NCBI GenBank assembly: GCA_045545475.1
Contig: JAZQAZ010000020.1
Location: 32,001-96,000 of the forward strand
Direction: 5' to 3'
Length of the DNA stretch: 64,000 bases
DNA from: Clostridia bacterium
GTDB taxonomy: Bacteria > Bacillota > Clostridia > CAKSNL01 > HGM11501
Shown: positions 37,115 through 45,510 of the stretch, piece after piece
Layout of the letters: every line of letters begins with the position of its first letter
How positions within the stretch are numbered: the stretch's first letter is position 1
Made by a program: the position numbers and the translations under genes
The notes under the pieces: model-generated
Seen by the model: the letters and a program-made list of their open reading frames with translations, nothing else
Told to the model about the DNA's origin: nothing
Database searches by the model: none

Positions 37115-39487
37115 ATGAAAAAATATATTTCAACAGTTTTAATACTTACTCTCCTTGTATCTCTTCTTACAGGTTTTTCTGCTGTTGCAACTGAGACGAC
37201 AGCGGAAACTACAGAAGCGGCTGCAACAGGAACCGTTACTCTTACCGAGGCAATGAAGAATTCCTTTAAGGCTGAGATGGCTGCCAAGACTCCCGATAAT
37301 GAGAGTATTGAGCCTCAGTTTACACTCATTACAGAAAACGAAAACCTTGCTCTTTATGCAATTACCGATAATGCAGAAAAGCGTATGGGTGAAGTTGCTG
37401 TATTGGATAAGGAAACGGGCTATGTATGGCGCAGTAATCCTATAGGAAACGATGCCGATATCATCGGTCAGGCATCCGGTCACGCTTTTTATAGAACTAA
37501 ATCTCAGATAGCTGTATCCTTCACGCAAGGTTATAACTATTTCGATGCGAACATGTACTATGAAAGCGTTCTTTCCGACAAGGTTTCCTGTAAGGTTGAA
37601 GATGATGCTGTTAAATTTGTTTTCAAATTCAGGGAAGTGGATTTCGTAATTCCCGTAAGATACACTCTTGAGGACGATGCCTTTGTGGCAGAAGTACTTC
37701 TTAACGATGAAGAGGCACTTCTCAGCTACTCAAGAATGGGTACCATCGCTGTAGGTCACTTAGGTGAAACAGTTGAACAGGAAGTTGACTACAATATCAC
37801 CGAGATTAAGCTTCTTCCTGCAATGGGTGCAACAAGCTATAATGAATCCGGTTATATGTTCATTCCCGACGGAAGCGGTGCCCTTATTTACATGAATAAC
37901 GGCCGTTCCAATATAACACAGCCTTATTCGGCTCCCGTATTCGGAAACTATAAGGAAAGTAAGTCTGAAGATTATAACAGAAAAGCTTCCGATCGTTATA
38001 TGCTTCCTGTATTCGGAACAGTAAAGGATGACGGACACGCACTTATGGGTGTTGTTACCGATAATGCATCTGTTTCCTTTGTAAATGCAGAAGTAAGCGG
38101 ATATGAAACAGCTTATAACAAGGTTTATTCTTCCTATCTTCATAAGATTATAAAAGGTGCTGACAAAGAAGGAACAGCTCAGCCTATGAGCCAGGAACTT
38201 CGCGACCTTGAGAAAAATTATAAGGTAAAATACTACTGCTTAAGCGGGGATGACGCTTCTTATGTCGGAATGGCCAAGCGTTACCGTGAGTATCTCGTAG
38301 AAGAAAAGGGAATGAAAAAAGCTGACGATTACAGAGAAGGTGCTCTTCTCCTTGATATGTATGCCGGCGTTGAGAAGAAAACCAGTATTCTTGGTATTCC
38401 CTGGAATAAGTTTGAAGTTATGACAACCTATGAAGATATCAGAAATATTTCTGACGATATGGAAGAAGCGGGAATAGACAATGTTATCTTTAAGTATAAC
38501 GACTGGATAAAGAAATCCGGCCGTAAAAAGATTCAGGTTAAGCCCAACTTTGAAGGCTCTATAGGCGGAAAGAGTGGCTACACCAAGACTAAGAATCATC
38601 TTGATTCCAAGAATATGAGTCTTTATATGAACATAGACTTCATAAACTTCTCTGAATCCGGAAACGGTTACAGCCGTCTTTCTGATTCCGTAAAGTATAC
38701 TAGCCAGGCTCCCGCATATCAGTCAAGCGGAATTTCTGCTCACGTTAACATGGGTTCAAGATGGTGTCTGTTGAAAGCACCTTTGGTAAAGGAAGCAGCA
38801 TTTAAGTTTGCTGACAAATGCGAAAGCGCAAATATCACAGCAGTTTCCATTGAAAATATCGGCGGAACGGTATATTCCGACGGTGCAAATAAAAACGGTC
38901 ATACAAGAGGCGAGTGTGCAAATCAGTTTACTGAAATTCTTGCAGGCTACAAGGAAAGATCAATTAATCTTCTTTCCACAGAACCAAGCGAATATGCTGC
39001 TGTATATTCTGACGTTCTTGCTGATATTCCCTCAAAGGATACATATATTGAAATTGCCGATGAGGCGGTTCCTTTCTACCAGATTGCAGTAAGAGGCTAC
39101 AAGACATATACAACGGAAACCGTAAATATGTCAAGTAATCCCGAAAATATTATACTTAATGCCGTTGAAAGCGGTTCAAGCCTTCTTTACAGCCTTGTTG
39201 CCGGAGAAACAACAGGACTTAAGGAAACCTACTTGAAGTATCTTTACAGCTGTAACTATTCACAGTGGAAAGAGGCTATAATCGAAGAATACACTGCTTA
39301 TTCCGAAGTTATGAAAATGGTTGAAGGTGCAGATATTGACAACCACGAAAAAATCGTAGAAAACGTTTATAAGACCACTTATAATAACGGAGTGGAAGTT
39401 TATGTAAACTATTCAGACGAAGCTTATCAGACTGAAAGCGGAGTTACAGTAGAAGCTAAGAGCTACATAGCAGAAAGGGGTGAGTGA
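37115..39487 (+). CDS. Secreted DUF5696-type protein (possible glycosidase-like fold)
   Basis: Signal peptide; DKETGYVWRSNP, GYMFIPDGSGALI..NNG, LPVFG, VPFYQIA, TTYNNGVEVYVNY. Confidence 0.8.
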   Translation: MKKYISTVLILTLLVSLLTGFSAVATETTAETTEAAATGTVTLTEAMKNSFKAEMAAKTPDNESIEPQFTLITENENLALYAITDNAEKRMGEVAVLDKETGYVWRSNPIGNDADIIGQASGHAFYRTKSQIAVSFTQGYNYFDANMYYESVLSDKVSCKVEDDAVKFVFKFREVDFVIPVRYTLEDDAFVAEVLLNDEEALLSYSRMGTIAVGHLGETVEQEVDYNITEIKLLPAMGATSYNESGYMFIPDGSGALIYMNNGRSNITQPYSAPVFGNYKESKSEDYNRKASDRYMLPVFGTVKDDGHALMGVVTDNASVSFVNAEVSGYETAYNKVYSSYLHKIIKGADKEGTAQPMSQELRDLEKNYKVKYYCLSGDDASYVGMAKRYREYLVEEKGMKKADDYREGALLLDMYAGVEKKTSILGIPWNKFEVMTTYEDIRNISDDMEEAGIDNVIFKYNDWIKKSGRKKIQVKPNFEGSIGGKSGYTKTKNHLDSKNMSLYMNIDFINFSESGNGYSRLSDSVKYTSQAPAYQSSGISAHVNMGSRWCLLKAPLVKEAAFKFADKCESANITAVSIENIGGTVYSDGANKNGHTRGECANQFTEILAGYKERSINLLSTEPSEYAAVYSDVLADIPSKDTYIEIADEAVPFYQIAVRGYKTYTTETVNMSSNPENIILNAVESGSSLLYSLVAGETTGLKETYLKYLYSCNYSQWKEAIIEEYTAYSEVMKMVEGADIDNHEKIVENVYKTTYNNGVEVYVNYSDEAYQTESGVTVEAKSYIAERGE

Positions 39488-39489
39488 TA

Positions 39490-40515
39490 ATGGCGAAAAA
39501 AGAAAATACTGCTTCAACTGAAGTAAAGGAAGAAGTTATACTTGACAGCGAAAGAAAACCAACCAAGGAAGAAATCAAAGCGGCGAAAGAAGCGGCAAAG
39601 CGTGCAAAGAAGCAGAGAAAAGCTGCTGCAGCACTTTCTGAGCGTCAGGCGAGAGCCGGATATTGGTTCATCCTTCCTTGGATTGTCGGAGTAATCTTTT
39701 TATTCCTTGTTCCCGTTGTTACATCACTCATATATTCCTTCTGTGAGGTTGGCGTAAGAGCTGGCGGTATAAAGCTGGACTTCCAGGGAATAGATAACTA
39801 TATCTATATCTTCAGAAAAGATCCTGACTTTATTCCCGCACTTCTTGACTCCCTTAAGGATATGCTTTATCAGGTGCCTATCATAGCATTCTTCGGTATG
39901 TTTATCGCACAGATACTGAATCAGAAGTTCGTGGGAAGAACTCTTGCAAGAGTAATGTTCTTCCTTCCCGTAATCATTGCATCCGGTGTTATCCTTGAAA
40001 TTCTTTCAAAAACCGGTATGAGCACTTCTGTTTCCCTCAATGAATCATCAAACATCTTTACATTCCAGGAAGAGTCAGTTATCTTGAAGATTCTTAATCA
40101 GAGCGGTCTTAGCCCTGCTATTATCGATTACTTAAAGAGTCTTGTGGGTAACATCTTCGACATCACCTGGAAGAGCGGTATTCAGATTCTTTTATATCTT
40201 TCTGCTCTTCAGGGTATTCCGAAATCCTATTACGAGGTTTCATCAATGGAAGGTGCAACAGCATGGGAAGAATACTGGAAGATTACATTCCCTCTTTTAT
40301 CACCCATGACTCTTGTGTGCGTTGTTTATACAATCATTGACTCCTTCACATATTATCAGAACAAGGTTATGCAGCTTATCGACAAAAACGGCGTTGCAAC
40401 AGGTAATGCAGGTATTGCGGCGGCAATGGCATGGACATACTTCATCATCATTGCGGTTATACTTGTGCTTATTGTAAAGTTTGTATTTGCTAAGACTGTA
40501 TATACTGAAGAGTAA
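39490..40515 (+). CDS. Carbohydrate ABC permease (second pair, UgpA-like)
   Basis: GYWFILPWIVG, FFLPVIIASG, LQGIPKSYYEVSSMEGATAWE..WKITFP. Confidence 0.92.
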   Translation: MAKKENTASTEVKEEVILDSERKPTKEEIKAAKEAAKRAKKQRKAAAALSERQARAGYWFILPWIVGVIFLFLVPVVTSLIYSFCEVGVRAGGIKLDFQGIDNYIYIFRKDPDFIPALLDSLKDMLYQVPIIAFFGMFIAQILNQKFVGRTLARVMFFLPVIIASGVILEILSKTGMSTSVSLNESSNIFTFQEESVILKILNQSGLSPAIIDYLKSLVGNIFDITWKSGIQILLYLSALQGIPKSYYEVSSMEGATAWEEYWKITFPLLSPMTLVCVVYTIIDSFTYYQNKVMQLIDKNGVATGNAGIAAAMAWTYFIIIAVILVLIVKFVFAKTVYTEE

Positions 40516-40527
40516 GGAGGTGCCGGA

Positions 40528-41586
40528 ATGAGACCAGAGTTATCACAGCTTAATAAAAAGCAGTTCAAAGACGAAATGAAGCGCCGTGACGAGGAAATGA
40601 AATCCAGCGGCAAAGAAAACAGTATCGGCTTAAAGCGTTTCGGCTCAGCCTTTTTCAAAAAGCAGGTAGCACATTTTATATATGCTATTTTCAGAGCATT
40701 CCTGCTTATCGGCCTTTCTTACATAGTACTTTATCCTGTATTCAAGATGCTCAGTAATGCATTTTCCGAAGACTATGTAAAGTCAGCAACAAGTATCTGG
40801 ATACCCAATAATGTTGGTATGAATAACTTCGGATATGCCGTTACCTTGCTTAAGTACTGGGAATCCTTCTGGGCAAGCGTAAAAGTTGCATTGGGAAGTT
40901 CTATTCTTCAGGTTATATCTGCAGCACTTGCGGGTTACGGTTTTGCGAGATTTAAGTTTAAGGGAAGAGGAGCACTTTTCGCACTTGTTATCTTAACTAT
41001 GATAGTTCCTCCTCAGACATATCTTATTTCAATGTTCATGACTTACAGAAAGTTTGACCTTTTCGGTATCCTTGATATCGTGGGACTTATAGCAGGTAAG
41101 GACATGACCTGGAACTTAATCGGTACTCCCTGGACAATGTGGATTCCCGCAATTCTTGGTGTAGGCCTCAGAGGCGGACTTTTCATCTACATTTTCAGAC
41201 AGTTCTTCAGAGGTATGAGTAAGGAACTTGAAGAAGCAGCGTACATTGACGGATGCGGTCCCTTCATGACATTCCTCAGAATCATGGTTCCCAACGCTTT
41301 GTCATCAGGACTTGTAGTATTCTTGTTCTCACTGGTATGGCACTGGAACGACTACTTCACAGTATCTATGATGTATACAGCTCCCAACAAGCCGAGACCT
41401 TTAACTCTCACTCTTATGTCCGAGTACAAAACACTCGGTGTTACACTCTTCGGTGAGGGTGACGTTAACTCAACATACATTCTTAATGCGGCATGTGCAC
41501 TTATAATTCTGCCTTTGCTTTTGGTATTCGCAGTTGCACAGAGATTCTTCATCGAGAGTATGGATAAGGTTGGTATCAAGGGTTAA
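40528..41586 (+). CDS. Carbohydrate ABC permease (second pair, UgpE-like)
   Basis: GYGFARFKFKG, FRQFFRG...ELEEAAYIDG, VWHWND. Confidence 0.92.
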   Translation: MRPELSQLNKKQFKDEMKRRDEEMKSSGKENSIGLKRFGSAFFKKQVAHFIYAIFRAFLLIGLSYIVLYPVFKMLSNAFSEDYVKSATSIWIPNNVGMNNFGYAVTLLKYWESFWASVKVALGSSILQVISAALAGYGFARFKFKGRGALFALVILTMIVPPQTYLISMFMTYRKFDLFGILDIVGLIAGKDMTWNLIGTPWTMWIPAILGVGLRGGLFIYIFRQFFRGMSKELEEAAYIDGCGPFMTFLRIMVPNALSSGLVVFLFSLVWHWNDYFTVSMMYTAPNKPRPLTLTLMSEYKTLGVTLFGEGDVNSTYILNAACALIILPLLLVFAVAQRFFIESMDKVGIKG

Positions 41587-41595
41587 AATGCTTAT

Positions 41596-41633
41596 AACAA
41601 ATCCGATTGCACGGCAATCGGATTTGTTTTTTT
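41596..41633 (+). terminator. Terminator of the ABC-like operon
   Basis: AACAAATCCGATTGC-ACG-GCAATCGGATTTGTTTTTTT. Confidence 0.88.
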
Positions 41634-41679
41634 ATCAATCATTTTTTTAGAAAAAAGCCATGAAAAAAATAAATAACTC

Positions 41680-41708
41680 TTGACAAATGCTTTAATTTAT
41701 GGTATTCT
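41680..41708 (+). promoter_or_regulatory. tRNA promoter
   Basis: TTGACA-17 bp-TATTCT with extended -10 TG and an upstream A-rich tract. Confidence 0.75.
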
Positions 41709-41722
41709 ATCTTTCGTGGTAA

Positions 41723-41811
41723 GCCCGAGTGGCGGAACTGGCAGACGCACAGGACTTAAAATCCTGCGCCCGTTAAAAGTCGTACCGGTTCGATTCCGGT
41801 CTCGGGCACCA
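41723..41811 (+). tRNA. tRNA-Leu (anticodon UAA), CCA encoded
   Basis: Acceptor GCCCGAG/CTCGGGC, D arm TGGCGGAACTGGCAGACGC, anticodon arm CAGGA-CTTAAAA-TCCTG, long variable arm, T arm ACCGG-TTCGATT-CCGGT, ACCA end. Confidence 0.96.
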
Positions 41812-41812
41812 G

Positions 41813-41840
41813 AAAAAAGACATCTTCGGATGTCTTTTTT
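41813..41840 (+). terminator. tRNA terminator
   Basis: AAAAAAGACATC-TTCG-GATGTCTTTTTT. Confidence 0.88.
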
Positions 41841-41841
41841 C

Positions 41842-41989
41842 AGTTATATTTGCCTTTGGCAAGTTTATATTGCTGCACAGTTATATTCGGATTACACCGA
41901 GTGATATTGTGCTTCGCACAGTTTAATGGCAAATATAATATCACTTTTACTCTGTAAAAATATCACTCCAACGAAGTTGGAATATCACT
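41842..41989. repeat. Mini-hairpin array A: AGT(G/T)ATAT linkers alternating with variable hairpins, then inverted ATATCACT linkers
   Basis: Four forward linkers (41842, 41862, 41879, 41900) and three reverse linkers (41938, 41960, 41982) separated by short hairpins. Confidence 0.85.
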
Positions 41990-42007
41990 AAAATAACCTG
42001 CATCTAT

Positions 42008-42073
42008 TGTGAAATGCACTTTGTGCGTGAAATATTGCTTCGCAATATGAAATACGCCTGCGGCGTGTGGATT
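42008..42073. repeat. Mini-hairpin array B: (G/A)TGAAAT linkers alternating with variable triloop hairpins
   Basis: GTGAAAT-GCAC(TTT)GTGC-GTGAAAT-ATTGC(TTC)GCAAT-ATGAAAT-ACGCC(TGC)GGCGT-GTGGATT. Confidence 0.85.
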
Positions 42074-42090
42074 TATACCATATATAGTTT

Positions 42091-42115
42091 GTAGGGAAGG
42101 GGCTTGCTCCTTCCG
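42091..42115 (+). repeat. GTAG-type REP-like palindrome
   Basis: GTAG-GGAAGGGGC-TT-GCTCCTTCC-G; second copy at 54793. Confidence 0.8.
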
Positions 42116-42146
42116 GAAGATGTAAATTAATAGGCTATGGCTGAAG

Positions 42147-42179
42147 AAAGACGGCTTTTTTTAGAAAGTGGTCTTTTTT
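42147..42179 (+). terminator. Imperfect terminator closing the repeat locus
   Basis: AAAGACGGCTTT-TTTTAG-AAAGTGGTCTTT-TTT. Confidence 0.5.
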
Positions 42180-42238
42180 ATTTTTAGTGCTTGATTTATC
42201 TCTTTGCTTGTGCTATACTGCATTCCGAGGTGACAGAA

Positions 42239-43468
42239 ATGGACAACAATAAAAGAGTTAAGCTTGGTTGCTATTGGACCAATATTTCAATGTCTGTGGT
42301 GGGAAATATTTCGCCAATACTTTTTCTTACCTTCAGGGAGCTTTACGGAGTATCGTTTTCACTTCTGGGGCTTTTGGTGCTTGTTAATTTTTGCACACAG
42401 CTTACAATTGATTTGATATTTTCGTTTTTTTCGCATAAATTCAATATTGCAAAAACAGTTAAGCTGACACCTGTAATTACGGTGGCAGGACTTCTCATAT
42501 ATTCGCTGTGGCCTGTTATAAGCCCTGAAACAGCTTTTGTTGGTATAGTTTTGGGTACGGTTGTGTTCTCATCTTCGGGAGGCCTTTGCGAGGTTTTAAT
42601 AAGTCCTGTAATAGCTGCAATTCCTGCAGACGATCCCGACAGGGAGATGAGCAAGCTTCATTCAATTTATGCCTGGGGCGTGGTGGGCGTTGTCATTTTC
42701 TCAACGGCTTTTCTTCTTCTTTTCGGAGCTGAAAACTGGTACATACTTTCTCTTATTCTTACAATAGTTCCTATATTTGCGGCAGTATTGTTTGCAGGGG
42801 TAAAAATTCCCGAAATGGAAACTCCCGAAAAAGTAACCGGAGCATTGAAGCAGCTTAAAAACAAAACGCTCTTAACCTCGGTTTTTGCAATTTTTCTTGG
42901 CGGTGCAGCAGAGTGTACTATGGCACAGTGGTGCTCGGGTTACCTTGAAGAGGTAACTAAAATTCCCAAGGTGTTTGGAGATATATTCGGAATGGCACTC
43001 TTTTCCCTTATGCTGGGACTGGGAAGAAGCTTGTACGCAAAAATAGGAAAGAATATAAACAAGGTTCTTCTTATGTGCTCAATTGGGGCAACTCTTTGCT
43101 ATTTCACAGCGGCAGTTTCTCCGTTCCCCGTAATTACACTGATAGCCTGTGCACTTACCGGATTTTGCACATCTATGCTTTGGCCGGGAAATTTGATTGC
43201 GGCATCTGACAGAATGCCTCACGGAGGAGTATTTTTATATGCCATGATGGCATCGGGAGGAGACCTGGGAGCATCGGTCGTGCCTCAGATGCTTGGAATA
43301 GTCACCGATGCGGTAATGGAAAATGAGGCTCTTGTGAGCCTTGCATCGAAAATGGGGCTTGAAGCAGAGCAGCTCGGAATGCGATGCGGAATGCTTATCG
43401 GTATGCTTTTCCCGCTTATGGCAATCCCTGTATTTATAAGCTTTATGAAAGAAAAAAAGAAGGCGTGA
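42239..43468 (+). CDS. MFS transporter
   Basis: About 12 TM segments; GGLCEVLISP, MSKLHS.YAWG, GGDLGAS. Confidence 0.9.
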   Translation: MDNNKRVKLGCYWTNISMSVVGNISPILFLTFRELYGVSFSLLGLLVLVNFCTQLTIDLIFSFFSHKFNIAKTVKLTPVITVAGLLIYSLWPVISPETAFVGIVLGTVVFSSSGGLCEVLISPVIAAIPADDPDREMSKLHSIYAWGVVGVVIFSTAFLLLFGAENWYILSLILTIVPIFAAVLFAGVKIPEMETPEKVTGALKQLKNKTLLTSVFAIFLGGAAECTMAQWCSGYLEEVTKIPKVFGDIFGMALFSLMLGLGRSLYAKIGKNINKVLLMCSIGATLCYFTAAVSPFPVITLIACALTGFCTSMLWPGNLIAASDRMPHGGVFLYAMMASGGDLGASVVPQMLGIVTDAVMENEALVSLASKMGLEAEQLGMRCGMLIGMLFPLMAIPVFISFMKEKKKA

Positions 43469-43502
43469 AAAATCCCCGGGATGTTACATTCCGGGGATTT
43501 TT
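43468..43502 (+). terminator. Intrinsic terminator
   Basis: AAAAATCCCCGGGATG-TTA-CATTCCGGGGATTTTT. Confidence 0.8.
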
Positions 43503-43574
43503 AATGCGGTTTCTATTGAAATGGCCGAAGGTTTATGGTAAAATGAAAATGCTTATATTTAAATAAGGATACGA

Positions 43575-44351
43575 ATGAAAAGGATAATGGAAATGGGAGA
43601 TAGTAAGAACCGTATGTCAAAGACGAGAAGGATATATTTTTTAAGACTTATCGGAAGAATTGTTGTATTTGCCATTGCGATTCTTACATATATATTTGAT
43701 ATTGATACATTTGAAATTGCAAAAGGATGGAACTTTTTCAAGGAGCCTTCGCTGCTTCATCTTTTGTGGTTTGTATGGATGTGCGATATGATATTGCAGC
43801 TTATCCCGGTTAAATCGCATATATCTATAGGTTCTCAAAAAGTGTTTGAGTCGCTTTTTAAGCCGATAAAGGAAAAAGTTAATTATAAAAATTTAAAGCA
43901 GTATATAAAAGATACTAGTGCAACCGCATACAAAGTTATGCTTATCTGGATTACTCTGACTGTTTGTATAAGCTTACTTTACTTATATGGAGTTATTGAT
44001 GCCGGAATGATGGTGCTGTTGTCAACGCTTTTTTATGTGTGCGATTTGATATGTGTCCTTATCTGGTGTCCGTTCAGGCTCATAATGCATAATAAGTGCT
44101 GTACAACTTGCAGAATATTTAATTGGGATCACCTTATGATGTTTTTACCAATAATAGCAGTAAACAGCTTTTTCACCTGGTCACTTATTATATTTGCATT
44201 TGCTGTGTGGCTTATATGGGAGTTATGCGTGCTTATATATCCTGAAAGATTTTGGGAAAACAGCAATATGGCTCTTCGATGCTCGGAATGCACAGATAAG
44301 CTTTGCACGCAATACTGCAGAAAATTAAGAACAAAAACTTTGGAAAAATAG
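43575..44351 (+). CDS. Cysteine-rich hypothetical membrane protein
   Basis: About five TM segments; CDLICVLIWCPF...KCCTTCRIFNWDH and CSECTDKLCTQYC; start codon uncertain. Confidence 0.75.
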   Translation: MKRIMEMGDSKNRMSKTRRIYFLRLIGRIVVFAIAILTYIFDIDTFEIAKGWNFFKEPSLLHLLWFVWMCDMILQLIPVKSHISIGSQKVFESLFKPIKEKVNYKNLKQYIKDTSATAYKVMLIWITLTVCISLLYLYGVIDAGMMVLLSTLFYVCDLICVLIWCPFRLIMHNKCCTTCRIFNWDHLMMFLPIIAVNSFFTWSLIIFAFAVWLIWELCVLIYPERFWENSNMALRCSECTDKLCTQYCRKLRTKTLEK

Positions 44352-44421
44352 ATTCTTGAATACATAATAAAATCTTCCAAAAAAGTTAAGGCGGAATTTT
44401 TAAAGTGACAGGAGTGTTTTT

Positions 44422-45510
44422 ATGGATCACAATGAAAGACCGGTTTATCATTTTAAGCCGGAAAAGGGATGGATAAACGATCCTAACGGACTGGTCTATT
44501 TTAATGGGTATTACCATGTTTTTTATCAGCATTGTCCGAATTATGAAAAGCCCAAACTGGAGCCTGTGCATTGGGGCCATGCAAGAACAAAGGACTTTTT
44601 GACATGGGAAGAACTGCCCATAGCTCTTTCGCCGGACAAATTCTATGACAGCGAAGGTTGCTGGTCGGGAACAGCAATTGTAAAGGATGATATACTTTAT
44701 CTTTTCTACGCTTCCGTGACAACTGGAACTTGTCAGTCTGTCAGCGTTGCATATTCAAAGGATGGTATAAATTTTGAGAAGTATGAAAAAAATCCTGTTA
44801 TAGAAACCTATCCCGAAGACGGAGGCCCGGATTTCAGGGATCCTGCTGTTAGCTTTATAGACGGAAAATACCGCTTGGTCATGGCAACAGGACATCCCGA
44901 AACTAAAAAAGGCCGCCTGCTTATATATGAAAGTGAAGATTTGCTTAGCTGGAATTACGGTGGAATAATAAGAGAATGGGATAATACTATCTATGCAGAA
45001 TGTCCTTCGTTGATAGATGAGGGAGAACGTGTTTTGCTTGCGGCGTCTGTGTGTCTGGTGGGATGGAAGCATTATTTCAGCGTGATGTACGGTAAGTTTG
45101 AAAACGGAGTATTTAAGGAATTTTTAAGTGGAAATGTGGACAGAGGTCCCGATCAGTATGCCGGACAGATATTTCGGGATCATAAAGGCAGGAGCCTTCT
45201 TATAACATGGATTCCCGGATGGGACTATCAGGGTTACGCCGAGAAAGATGTTGGCTGTATGTCAGTACCGCGTGAGATGTTTACAAAGGACGGAAAGATA
45301 TACGGTTATCCTGTAAAAGAAGTCAGGCATTTGCTTACAGACAGCGATCCTTTACTTAAAATGACCGAAGAGGGTTTTGAAATTGAGAGAACAGGCAGAG
45401 AAAATGTAGTCCATAAAGGTAAGATTGATGATATAAAAATTCTCCATGACAAGTATATAATGGAAGTTTTCGTAAATGGCGGAGAAACCATTTATACGGT
45501 TTTATTGTAA
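44422..45510 (+). CDS. GH32-family glycoside hydrolase (beta-fructofuranosidase-like), cytoplasmic
   Basis: Catalytic motifs WINDPNG, FRDP and ECP; also HWGHA and WSG. Confidence 0.93.
   Translation: MDHNERPVYHFKPEKGWINDPNGLVYFNGYYHVFYQHCPNYEKPKLEPVHWGHARTKDFLTWEELPIALSPDKFYDSEGCWSGTAIVKDDILYLFYASVTTGTCQSVSVAYSKDGINFEKYEKNPVIETYPEDGGPDFRDPAVSFIDGKYRLVMATGHPETKKGRLLIYESEDLLSWNYGGIIREWDNTIYAECPSLIDEGERVLLAASVCLVGWKHYFSVMYGKFENGVFKEFLSGNVDRGPDQYAGQIFRDHKGRSLLITWIPGWDYQGYAEKDVGCMSVPREMFTKDGKIYGYPVKEVRHLLTDSDPLLKMTEEGFEIERTGRENVVHKGKIDDIKILHDKYIMEVFVNGGETIYTVLL

Follow-up and report, generated by a model that had tools for sequence, protein, structure and literature searches.

Gut-1 is a catalogued motif of variable-sequence mini-hairpins joined by a constant 7-nt linker in DNA of the gut Clostridia type; the passages of Weinberg et al. 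2010 (PMC2864571) that treat it present a likely non-coding RNA, found in the human gut only and without an assigned function. Here we analyse an array of the same build, array A, which lies at 41842-41989 of a 64,000-nucleotide stretch of Clostridia bacterium DNA (assembly GCA_045545475.1, contig JAZQAZ010000020.1, positions 32,001 to 96,000 of the forward strand; hereafter the window). We consider it highly probable that array A belongs to a modular two-arm family, as a somewhat eroded copy, without a gene, of its ATATCAC/GTGATAT-word subtype; the GTGAAAT subtype of that family is Gut-1. This family of words and hairpins beside genes for four-helix-bundle proteins is defined in the present analysis and is not in print; literature searches found no paper tying Gut-1 to PF05635/TIGR02436 proteins, as judged by titles, abstracts and some passages, with supplements outside the search. 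A full module comprises the terminator of a stable-RNA gene (or a promoter and a hairpin), a forward arm of about five 7-nt words, a turn that pairs with word 1 in a long-range stem (P0), an inverted arm of four to five complementary words, and then the gene. The mini-hairpins between the words are GC-rich in the forward arm and AT-rich in the inverted arm, and the gene encodes an Avd-like four-helix bundle of about 120 aa (PF05635/TIGR02436).

In a permissive Rfam scan of the window, in which the gathering cut-off of Gut-1 (RF01706) is 50 bits, both arms of array A match this model below the cut-off, the forward arm at 41841-41912 on the + strand (32.2 bits, E 4e-4) and the inverted arm at 41933-42010 on the - strand (28.4 bits, E 0.0037). 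Starting 18 nt downstream of array A is array B, a genuine Gut-1 forward arm with GTGAAAT words and three hairpins (42007-42078, on to 42090, + strand), which scores 59.5 bits, above the cut-off. Array B is cut off at its turn, between GTGGATTTAT and ACC; the orthologous copy in the related genome G002 has a full inverted arm. Since its arms weakly match Gut-1 and a true copy adjoins it, array A is a linker variant of a catalogued motif, and the original prediction, made from the letters alone, was mistaken in holding that no described family fits. The kinship stops short of a full match to the Rfam family, as the scores lie below 50 bits and the linker is another one, GU(U/G)AUAU / ATATCAC in array A against GUGAAAU in Gut-1. 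Moreover, the Rfam model holds the three hairpins of one arm, without the inverted arm, P0, the position behind a tRNA terminator or the four-helix-bundle gene.

Array A stands behind a tRNA-Leu gene (anticodon taa; 41723-41811, + strand; ARAGORN, and Rfam tRNA at 57.4 bits), from which it is separated by a two-way terminator-like hairpin at 41812-41841. This hairpin consists of an A-run, a 13-bp stem (GACATC/GATGTC) and a T-run, and it matches the intrinsic-terminator pattern of a GC-rich stem followed by a T-run. The forward arm (41842-41927, + strand) is built from five words, AGT(T/G)(T)ATAT / AGTTTAAT, with four mini-hairpins between them. The words are AGTTATAT at 41842-41849, AGTTTATAT at 41862-41870, AGTTATAT again at 41879-41886, AGTGATAT at 41900-41907 and a degenerate fifth, AGTTTAAT, at 41920-41927, which was absent from the original list. 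The hairpins are TTGCC(TTT)GGCAA at 41850-41862, a decayed one, TGCTGCACA, at 41871-41879, in which a G-to-A change breaks the stem in comparison with G002 and G039, TCGG(ATTACA)CCGA at 41887-41900 and TGTGC(TTC)GCACA at 41908-41920. The 5' strand of P0 (41844-41854, + strand) joins word 1 to the 5' half of hairpin 1; its 3' strand is the turn itself (41928-41938, + strand), in which the 3' half of hairpin 1 occurs again, followed by the inverted word ATATAAT, which corresponds to word 1 and not to the remaining inverted words. The two strands are exactly complementary, and an inverted-repeat search returned them as a 14-nt pair at 93%. The inverted arm (41938-41989, + strand) has three ATATCACT words at 41938, 41960 and 41982, a spacing of 22 nt, and two AT-rich hairpins, TTTTAC(TCT)GTAAAA at 41946-41960 and (T)CCAAC(GAA)GTTGG(A) at 41967-41981; this is one unit fewer than in 8 of the 10 other aligned arrays of this type. 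By eye, a tail, AAAATAACCTGCATCTATT (41990-42008, + strand), looks alike after other gene-less arrays, on contig C31 of the same genome and in G002.

The linkers, hairpins and long-range complement listed in the original prediction were thus all found where it had placed them; its linker formula, AGT(G/T)ATAT, describes the forward linkers it listed apart from the second, which carries an extra T. In the 64-kb window AGTKATAT occurs at nine sites, six of them inside the 148 nt of array A; the expectation is 4.36 (standard deviation 1.99), and 2 of 100 shuffles reach nine. Among the forward words GTTATAT stands three times and GTGATAT once, and such degeneracy is also seen in the 10 other aligned arrays of the subtype. 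Array A has the two-arm layout of the family, namely a forward and an inverted arm with mutually complementary 7-nt words at a spacing of about 17-22 nt, and it sits directly behind a same-strand stable-RNA gene and its terminator, as the family modules do. The next gene after the arrays encodes an MFS transporter, with no PF05635 gene directly downstream, and the window holds no four-helix-bundle gene, as the original prediction had said. Array A is filed as a solo, gene-less copy because no PF05635 gene follows it and the genome has no ATATCAC-type gene. It is probably an orphan and probably inert; most likely it is either a relic without activity or a solo site that a trans-supplied protein would use.

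The gene-bearing state of the family is seen in the same genome (50 contigs, 95% complete). It contains four PF05635 genes, every one with a two-arm array upstream and with three different words among them: two follow Gut-1 arrays, and the other two are preceded by the words GCTAAAT/ATTTAGC and ATGATG/CATCAT. Gut-1 has 17 matches in this genome, nine of them over the cut-off, typically a + match and then immediately a - match. In these copies a stable-RNA gene is followed by a hairpin with A-run and T-run and then by a forward arm of RTGAAAT words with GC-rich stems; in the turn the 3' half of hairpin 1 recurs, and the inverted arm has ATTTCAC words, AT-rich stems and GAA loops. A word-blind detector found 10 two-arm loci in the genome, one of which (on C34) looks spurious, against 1, 0 and 0 in shuffled genomes; it missed array A because of the degenerate forward words. 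Gene-less copies are common, with at least five in this genome.

Among 14 genomes of the host family, with arrays judged by eye, a word/hairpin array precedes 19 of the 23 PF05635 genes and compact inverted heptads precede two, while the last two show nothing or a degenerate array. Arrays of the ATATCAC type stand before a PF05635 gene at four loci, G008:C3, G010:C209, G002:C63 and G002:C24; their forward words are degenerate like those of the window, and a strong promoter-like site lies just after the last word. A promoter, tRNA-Arg, a terminator, an ATATCAC-type array and a four-helix-bundle gene also occur together in MT835815.1 (2074-8179; locus L181), the sole match in the phage collection, an unverified and unannotated 17-kb 'bacteriophage' record that looks bacterial in this part; the plasmid collection gave no match. 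A three-word ATATCAC pattern is present in 20 of 301 genomes of the class (13 of 175 genera), with up to eight per genome, while a control pattern gave 0.

The link between arrays and genes extends to the class sample. PF05635 occurs in 98 of the 300 genomes of an even sample, and 124 loci were hand-picked among the 150 matches listed, omitting own-family rows already covered, truncated rows, rows with several stops and rows a few hundred bases from a contig start; the first 120 were fetched and joined with the 23 family loci, giving 143 genes. Two-arm arrays lie within 450 nt upstream of 44 of them by a strict rule (0 of 715 shuffles) and of 49 by a lenient rule (1 of 715). Another 28 genes have plain tandem repeats in the 200 nt before them, 27 with a period of exactly 7 (1 of 715 shuffles). 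A connection with 23S-IVP/Avd-like four-helix-bundle genes, which the original prediction had offered, is therefore borne out in the own genome, the host family and the class sample. As arrays stand before some protein clades and plain heptads before others, what these loci share is the 7-nt word, with hairpins as an optional means of spacing it. The word also varies with the protein. On a tree of 49 proteins, from which proteins of fewer than 100 or more than 160 residues and arrays with a word outside nine named types were left out, these nine word types need eight changes, the minimum possible (shuffles mean 31.9, 0 of 200 as low). The clades hold near-identical proteins, with near-zero branch lengths, across many host families, which indicates that the cassette moves horizontally. 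The tandem-repeat loci, which fall among L061-L180 of the class sample, include L100, L069, L071 and L152, and several of the repeats abut the ribosome-binding site.

The arrays keep their shape while the sequence varies, as the original prediction had supposed. Compared with 200 shuffles per strand and parameter set, array A folds as + strand RNA at -40.7 kcal/mol (z -4.61, 0 of 200 shuffles as good), with P0 in the minimum-energy fold; z is -4.02 for + strand DNA (no shuffle as good), -3.36 for - strand DNA (2 shuffles) and -2.97 for - strand RNA (3 shuffles). In 11 aligned ATATCAC-type arrays, scored over P0 and the two inverted-arm hairpins, 95.5% of cells are paired, against 86.1% in shuffles (0 of 500 reach this value) and 43-52% with slid partners, and 11 of 25 pairs show two-sided changes. 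P0 alone has 12 pairs, of which two are compensatory, with 94.7% of cells paired. RNAalifold, applied to a MAFFT alignment of the ATATCAC-type arrays, chose hairpin 1 and one word:word helix; the helices of forward hairpins 2-4 were left uncounted because these hairpins are out of register between alignment rows. Across the family, exact complements of the P0 type, at least 9 nt long, join the turn in 23 of 49 arrays to the earliest forward unit detected and in 24 of 49 to a later one, as called automatically with an uncertain register. Counting distinct cases, a perfect stem of at least 4 bp is present in 76 of 140 forward spacers and 72 of 116 inverted spacers (shuffles 6.9% and 13%), and 47 of the 76 and 49 of the 72 stems are distinct. 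The loops are mostly triloops closed by C-G (54 of 93 forward, 56 of 88 inverted), and on the top strand their sequence is TNC in forward loops and GNA in inverted loops, so the suggestion that loop polarity follows linker polarity holds across the whole family. An inverted-arm hairpin with a conserved non-palindromic core, GAGC-AAA-GCGA(G), is frequent across arrays of quite different words (for example at G000:C4:20712-20728 in the own genome, G000, and at L018, L060 and L181:3108-3124) and may be a tandem G-A motif.

An in-register rod, in which each forward word pairs with an inverted word, was considered and rejected for array A: GTTATAT mismatches ATATCAC, and the minimum-energy fold uses P0. 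One relative pairs just 1 of 24 word nucleotides. The rejection is for the ATATCAC subtype alone, and the rod is the predicted fold for other word types; the GCTAAAT array on C18 of the own genome, for instance, is predicted to form nested word:word helices with the hairpins branching off (z -4.2).

The anatomy, the covariation, the linkage to the gene and the joint variation of word and protein clade are observed; going beyond them, we propose that the array is a cis-acting nucleic-acid partner of the linked four-helix-bundle protein. The linked protein is a TIGR02436 member (109 bits), and among solved structures 2RLD is its nearest relative (E 3e-29; an entry of five chains). Its family is, in the parts of PMC10053308 that concern it, the Avd/23S-IVP pentameric four-helix-bundle barrel. 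In the Avd pentamer of the Bordetella phage retroelement, as described in sections of a preprint (bioRxiv 10.1101/2023.10.23.563531), an RNA stem-loop is bound by all five protomers, with flipped-out bases in the inter-protomer crevices. By analogy, the 7-nt word would be the recognition unit and would diversify together with the protein, and a pentameric barrel may read up to five words per arm through equivalent sites. The hairpins would fold the spacers away, so that the 21-22-nt period collapses to the 7-nt period of the tandem-heptad relatives; such an equivalence of hairpin arrays and tandem heptads requires a single-stranded form. If this form is RNA, an mRNA leader or a read-through transcript could mediate autoregulation or the assembly of a ribonucleoprotein. 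We infer the binding, the stoichiometry and the RNA form, and we put the probability of the whole mechanism, a single-stranded platform presenting words to its cognate pentamer, at roughly one half.

Whether this platform would be RNA or folded DNA is a close question, at about 55:45 slightly in favour of RNA. RNA is favoured by the leader position of many arrays, by a G-U bias and by the RNA-binding homologue. In a context set of 49 arrays, in which promoter calls are consensus matches only (at least 9 of 12), 29 end no more than 30 nt before the start codon and must therefore lie in the mRNA leader; 26 of these lack a tRNA, and in 15 of those 26 a promoter-like site stands no more than 110 nt before the array (shuffled 15.5%). 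The inverted arm shows 21 G-U pairs on the top (mRNA-sense) strand and 5 on the bottom strand, against 4 and 6 in the forward arm. By RNA folding energy the forward arm slightly prefers the bottom strand (+0.30 kcal/mol, p 0.002) and the inverted arm the top strand (-0.27, p 0.04). Three RNA-library contigs from two studies, 88-95% alike, run from the 3' end of the tRNA across the terminator into the forward arm (41782/41809-41945) and count neither for nor against expression. The case for DNA rests on the C(GNA)G triloops, the strand flip and the placement of the tRNA-linked form between terminator and promoter. In the context set 17 of the 49 arrays follow a tRNA (nine identities) on the same strand, with an opposite-strand tRNA in 0 of 49, and 20 end at least 45 nt before the start codon, 14 of these directly behind a same-strand tRNA.

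Several observations weigh against the proposed mechanism. First, 18 of the 20 long-gap arrays precede a promoter-like site in the gap (shuffled 12.5%); the tRNA-linked array, which is the form in the window, is thus placed behind a terminator and before the promoter of the gene, and the main mRNA would be without it. The RNA-library contigs cover 41782-41945 at a depth of just 2.5-15, like the flanking genes, and they come from relatives, with DNA carry-over possible. Second, arrays folded as one RNA pair 50.7% of their forward-word nucleotides with inverted-arm words, and such word:word pairing involves at least 12 nucleotides in 32 of 49 arrays; in this predicted fold the words would be hidden from a single-strand reader. 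The polarity flip and the dominance of triloops are better explained by DNA mini-hairpins, or by a design of two strands, than by one RNA. Third, 66 of the 143 four-helix-bundle genes have neither array nor heptads, and no PF05635 gene of the ATATCAC type was found in the own genome at 95% completeness. The co-variation of word and protein could also be plain co-inheritance of neighbours.

The alternative that fares best, though we regard it as rather unlikely, is an element acting at the DNA level, as folded single-stranded DNA, a branched cruciform or phased double-stranded sites (21-22 bp, two helical turns), for the same protein or a host factor; it might serve as an operator-like or iteron-like array by the gene promoter, or as a cis site for copying or inserting the module behind terminator hairpins. 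C(GNA)G triloops form unusually stable single-stranded DNA mini-hairpins, and in the arrays they dominate and switch strand with the arm. The tRNA-linked arrays lie between the terminator and the promoter-like site, with the last word a few bases from the -35 element, and in promoter-linked modules the 5' hairpin, by eye, abuts or overlaps the -10 element, so that an RNA would begin inside a hairpin. The modules also move, as the protein clades indicate. In G039, a member of another family, the same terminator stem and array A are 89% identical behind a different tRNA, so the terminator hairpin travels with the array. At the tRNA-Leu locus, arrays A and B are present in G002 (94% identical) and G010 (91%); G004 (81%) lacks the arrays, its terminator is a different one and just tail-like remnants are left, and G007 and G009 have a different gene order at this locus and no arrays there. 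Whole hairpins differ between orthologous arrays though the flanks are nearly identical, which points, at the level of sequence, to exchange between array copies. In G002 the unit of terminator, array A, tail and array B is duplicated in tandem, with a two-armed first array B, and the window state can be derived on paper from such a duplication through recombination between the repeats.

Against an element of this kind, none of the arrays has a recombinase, HUH nuclease or reverse transcriptase next to it, and neither a target-site duplication nor a clean empty site was found. On B-DNA, 7-bp heptads and 21-22-bp arrays cannot present their words alike to one oligomer, and stems of 4-6 bp would probably be short for cruciform extrusion. 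The sole experimentally characterised homologue, Avd, binds RNA in the account given in parts of the preprint (bioRxiv 10.1101/2023.10.23.563531).

It is improbable that the arrays are a passive by-product, a terminator or insulator hairpin stack or the decaying debris of insertions at tRNA genes, without a specific partner, of which the window copy would be a dead relic. This copy does have a broken hairpin 2, one unit fewer, no cognate gene and a truncated array B adjoining, and a consensus terminator scan within array A flags two of its hairpins, 41848-41864 (+) and 41984-41964 (-). The other array hairpins are without T-runs, and in the family the words are conserved while the stems vary with compensatory changes; array A is almost unchanged in G002, G010 and the distant G039. 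The original prediction had likewise set the array apart from CRISPR, from a classical repetitive extragenic palindrome (REP) and from a mere terminator, and we agree with it, less firmly in the case of the terminator.

Least probable of these alternatives is a free-standing structured small RNA, independent of the protein and with the gene linkage as hitch-hiking, as was first proposed for Gut-1: the classing of Gut-1 as a likely non-coding RNA (Rfam, and the relevant part of Weinberg 2010, PMC2864571), the strong folding z-scores, the common gene-less copies and a two-way terminator that could end a leftward transcript agree with it, and against it stand an Rfam model that spans one arm only, a word type that tracks the protein clade perfectly, hairpin-less tandem heptads that replace the arrays before other clades, which is odd for a structure-only RNA, and the absence of a visible promoter of their own for tRNA-linked copies.

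Described classes were also compared. A DGR (diversity-generating retroelement) is rejected because the sole RVT_1 match of the own genome (C10) is away from all four PF05635 genes; template and variable repeats were not searched for. The array-linked protein and the Avd of these elements share the Avd/23S-IVP superfamily (PF05635, TIGR02436); Avd, in the part of its description consulted here, binds one 11-bp stem-loop, whereas the array ligand would be repeated words. The intervening sequences of 23S rRNA with S23p/IVP, as portrayed in portions of PMC4990558, have a protein of the same family, carried in a selfish insertion that is linked to a stable-RNA operon and has inverted repeats on both sides. 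The array modules differ from these in that they follow the RNA gene and its terminator instead of lying inside the RNA gene, and in that both inverted arms are upstream of the open reading frame (ORF) and do not flank it.

CRISPR, with identical repeats of 24-40 nt, unique spacers of like length and neighbouring cas genes, is rejected because the constant unit is 7-8 nt, the spacers are palindromes of 9-15 nt and the polarity flips; cas genes were not searched for. REP, BIME and REPIN elements are multi-copy extragenic palindromes, often near terminators, in solo and clustered copies, and the arrays resemble them in all these respects. The difference is that the arrays keep the unpaired linker constant and vary the stems, the opposite of REP, and no RAYT-like gene is nearby. 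REP or REPIN with a RAYT is rejected on this variation of the stems and on the single weak Y1_Tnp match in the own genome (contig C30, 25.7 bits), which, like the RVT_1 match, is not near any array. In the CsrB/RsmZ sponges and the TRAP-binding trp leader, a short word is repeated between or on hairpins for an oligomeric protein; they differ from the arrays in word, in protein fold and in the two-arm inverted design, and they serve as an analogy only.

A bolder version of the proposed mechanism, which we hold tentatively and think somewhat unlikely to be right, is that arrays and plain heptads share one code. Here a pentamer would read about five copies of a 7-nt word, one per inter-protomer crevice, the hairpins would solely serialise the words in single-stranded RNA or DNA, the whole would be a horizontally mobile, co-diversifying cassette behind stable-RNA genes, and solo arrays such as array A would be landing pads or decoys for a protein provided in trans. 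If true, it would amount to a natural, re-addressable, word-reading nucleic-acid-binding pentamer, a free-living relative of the 23S intervening sequences and of the Avd-RNA pair of DGRs. As a motif Gut-1 has stood alone since 2010, and the large family PF05635/TIGR02436 has no known role apart from DGRs. Should every word type prove to be the ligand of its own clade of proteins, a gel shift could test both orphans. The proposed mechanism, if true, would show an Avd-like pentamer recognising nucleic acid without a reverse transcriptase, and would explain common unannotated repeats behind the tRNA genes of gut Clostridia, which break assemblies. The window copy itself, as an orphan that is probably inert, is of modest practical weight.

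Further features of these loci deserve mention. At G000:C4:20223-20560, in the own genome outside the window, a complete tRNA and its terminator are followed, about 190 nt on, by a 20-nt repeat of the tRNA 3' end, a second terminator and a Gut-1 two-arm array, which looks like the scar of an element once integrated in the tRNA 3' end. A compact variant, with contiguous TTCACT-type heptads, direct and then inverted, without hairpins and behind a tRNA terminator, occurs at G000:C42:2690-2790, in G005:C19 (L055, before a four-helix-bundle gene) and at the tRNA-Leu locus of G004 (L026). A second small ORF lies at or just after the four-helix-bundle stop codon at G000:C18:2286-2610 and at G000:C24:61634-61160 (minus strand); it differs between the two loci and may be cargo. 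A 5S rRNA gene (G000:C24:62617-62733; L019:2451-2567, minus strand) lies about 400 nt upstream, on the same strand, of the ATGATG-type module, so modules follow rRNA operons as well as tRNAs. In the window, array A is surrounded by a sugar-use cluster (37115-45510), with a DUF5696 protein and two ABC permeases before the tRNA and the arrays, and the MFS transporter, a 258-aa ORF and a GH32 glycosidase after them (to 45510). The assembly itself is broken by the repeat, as the same tRNA-terminator-array sequence ends contig C48 (54511-54611) and starts contig C31 (1-217).

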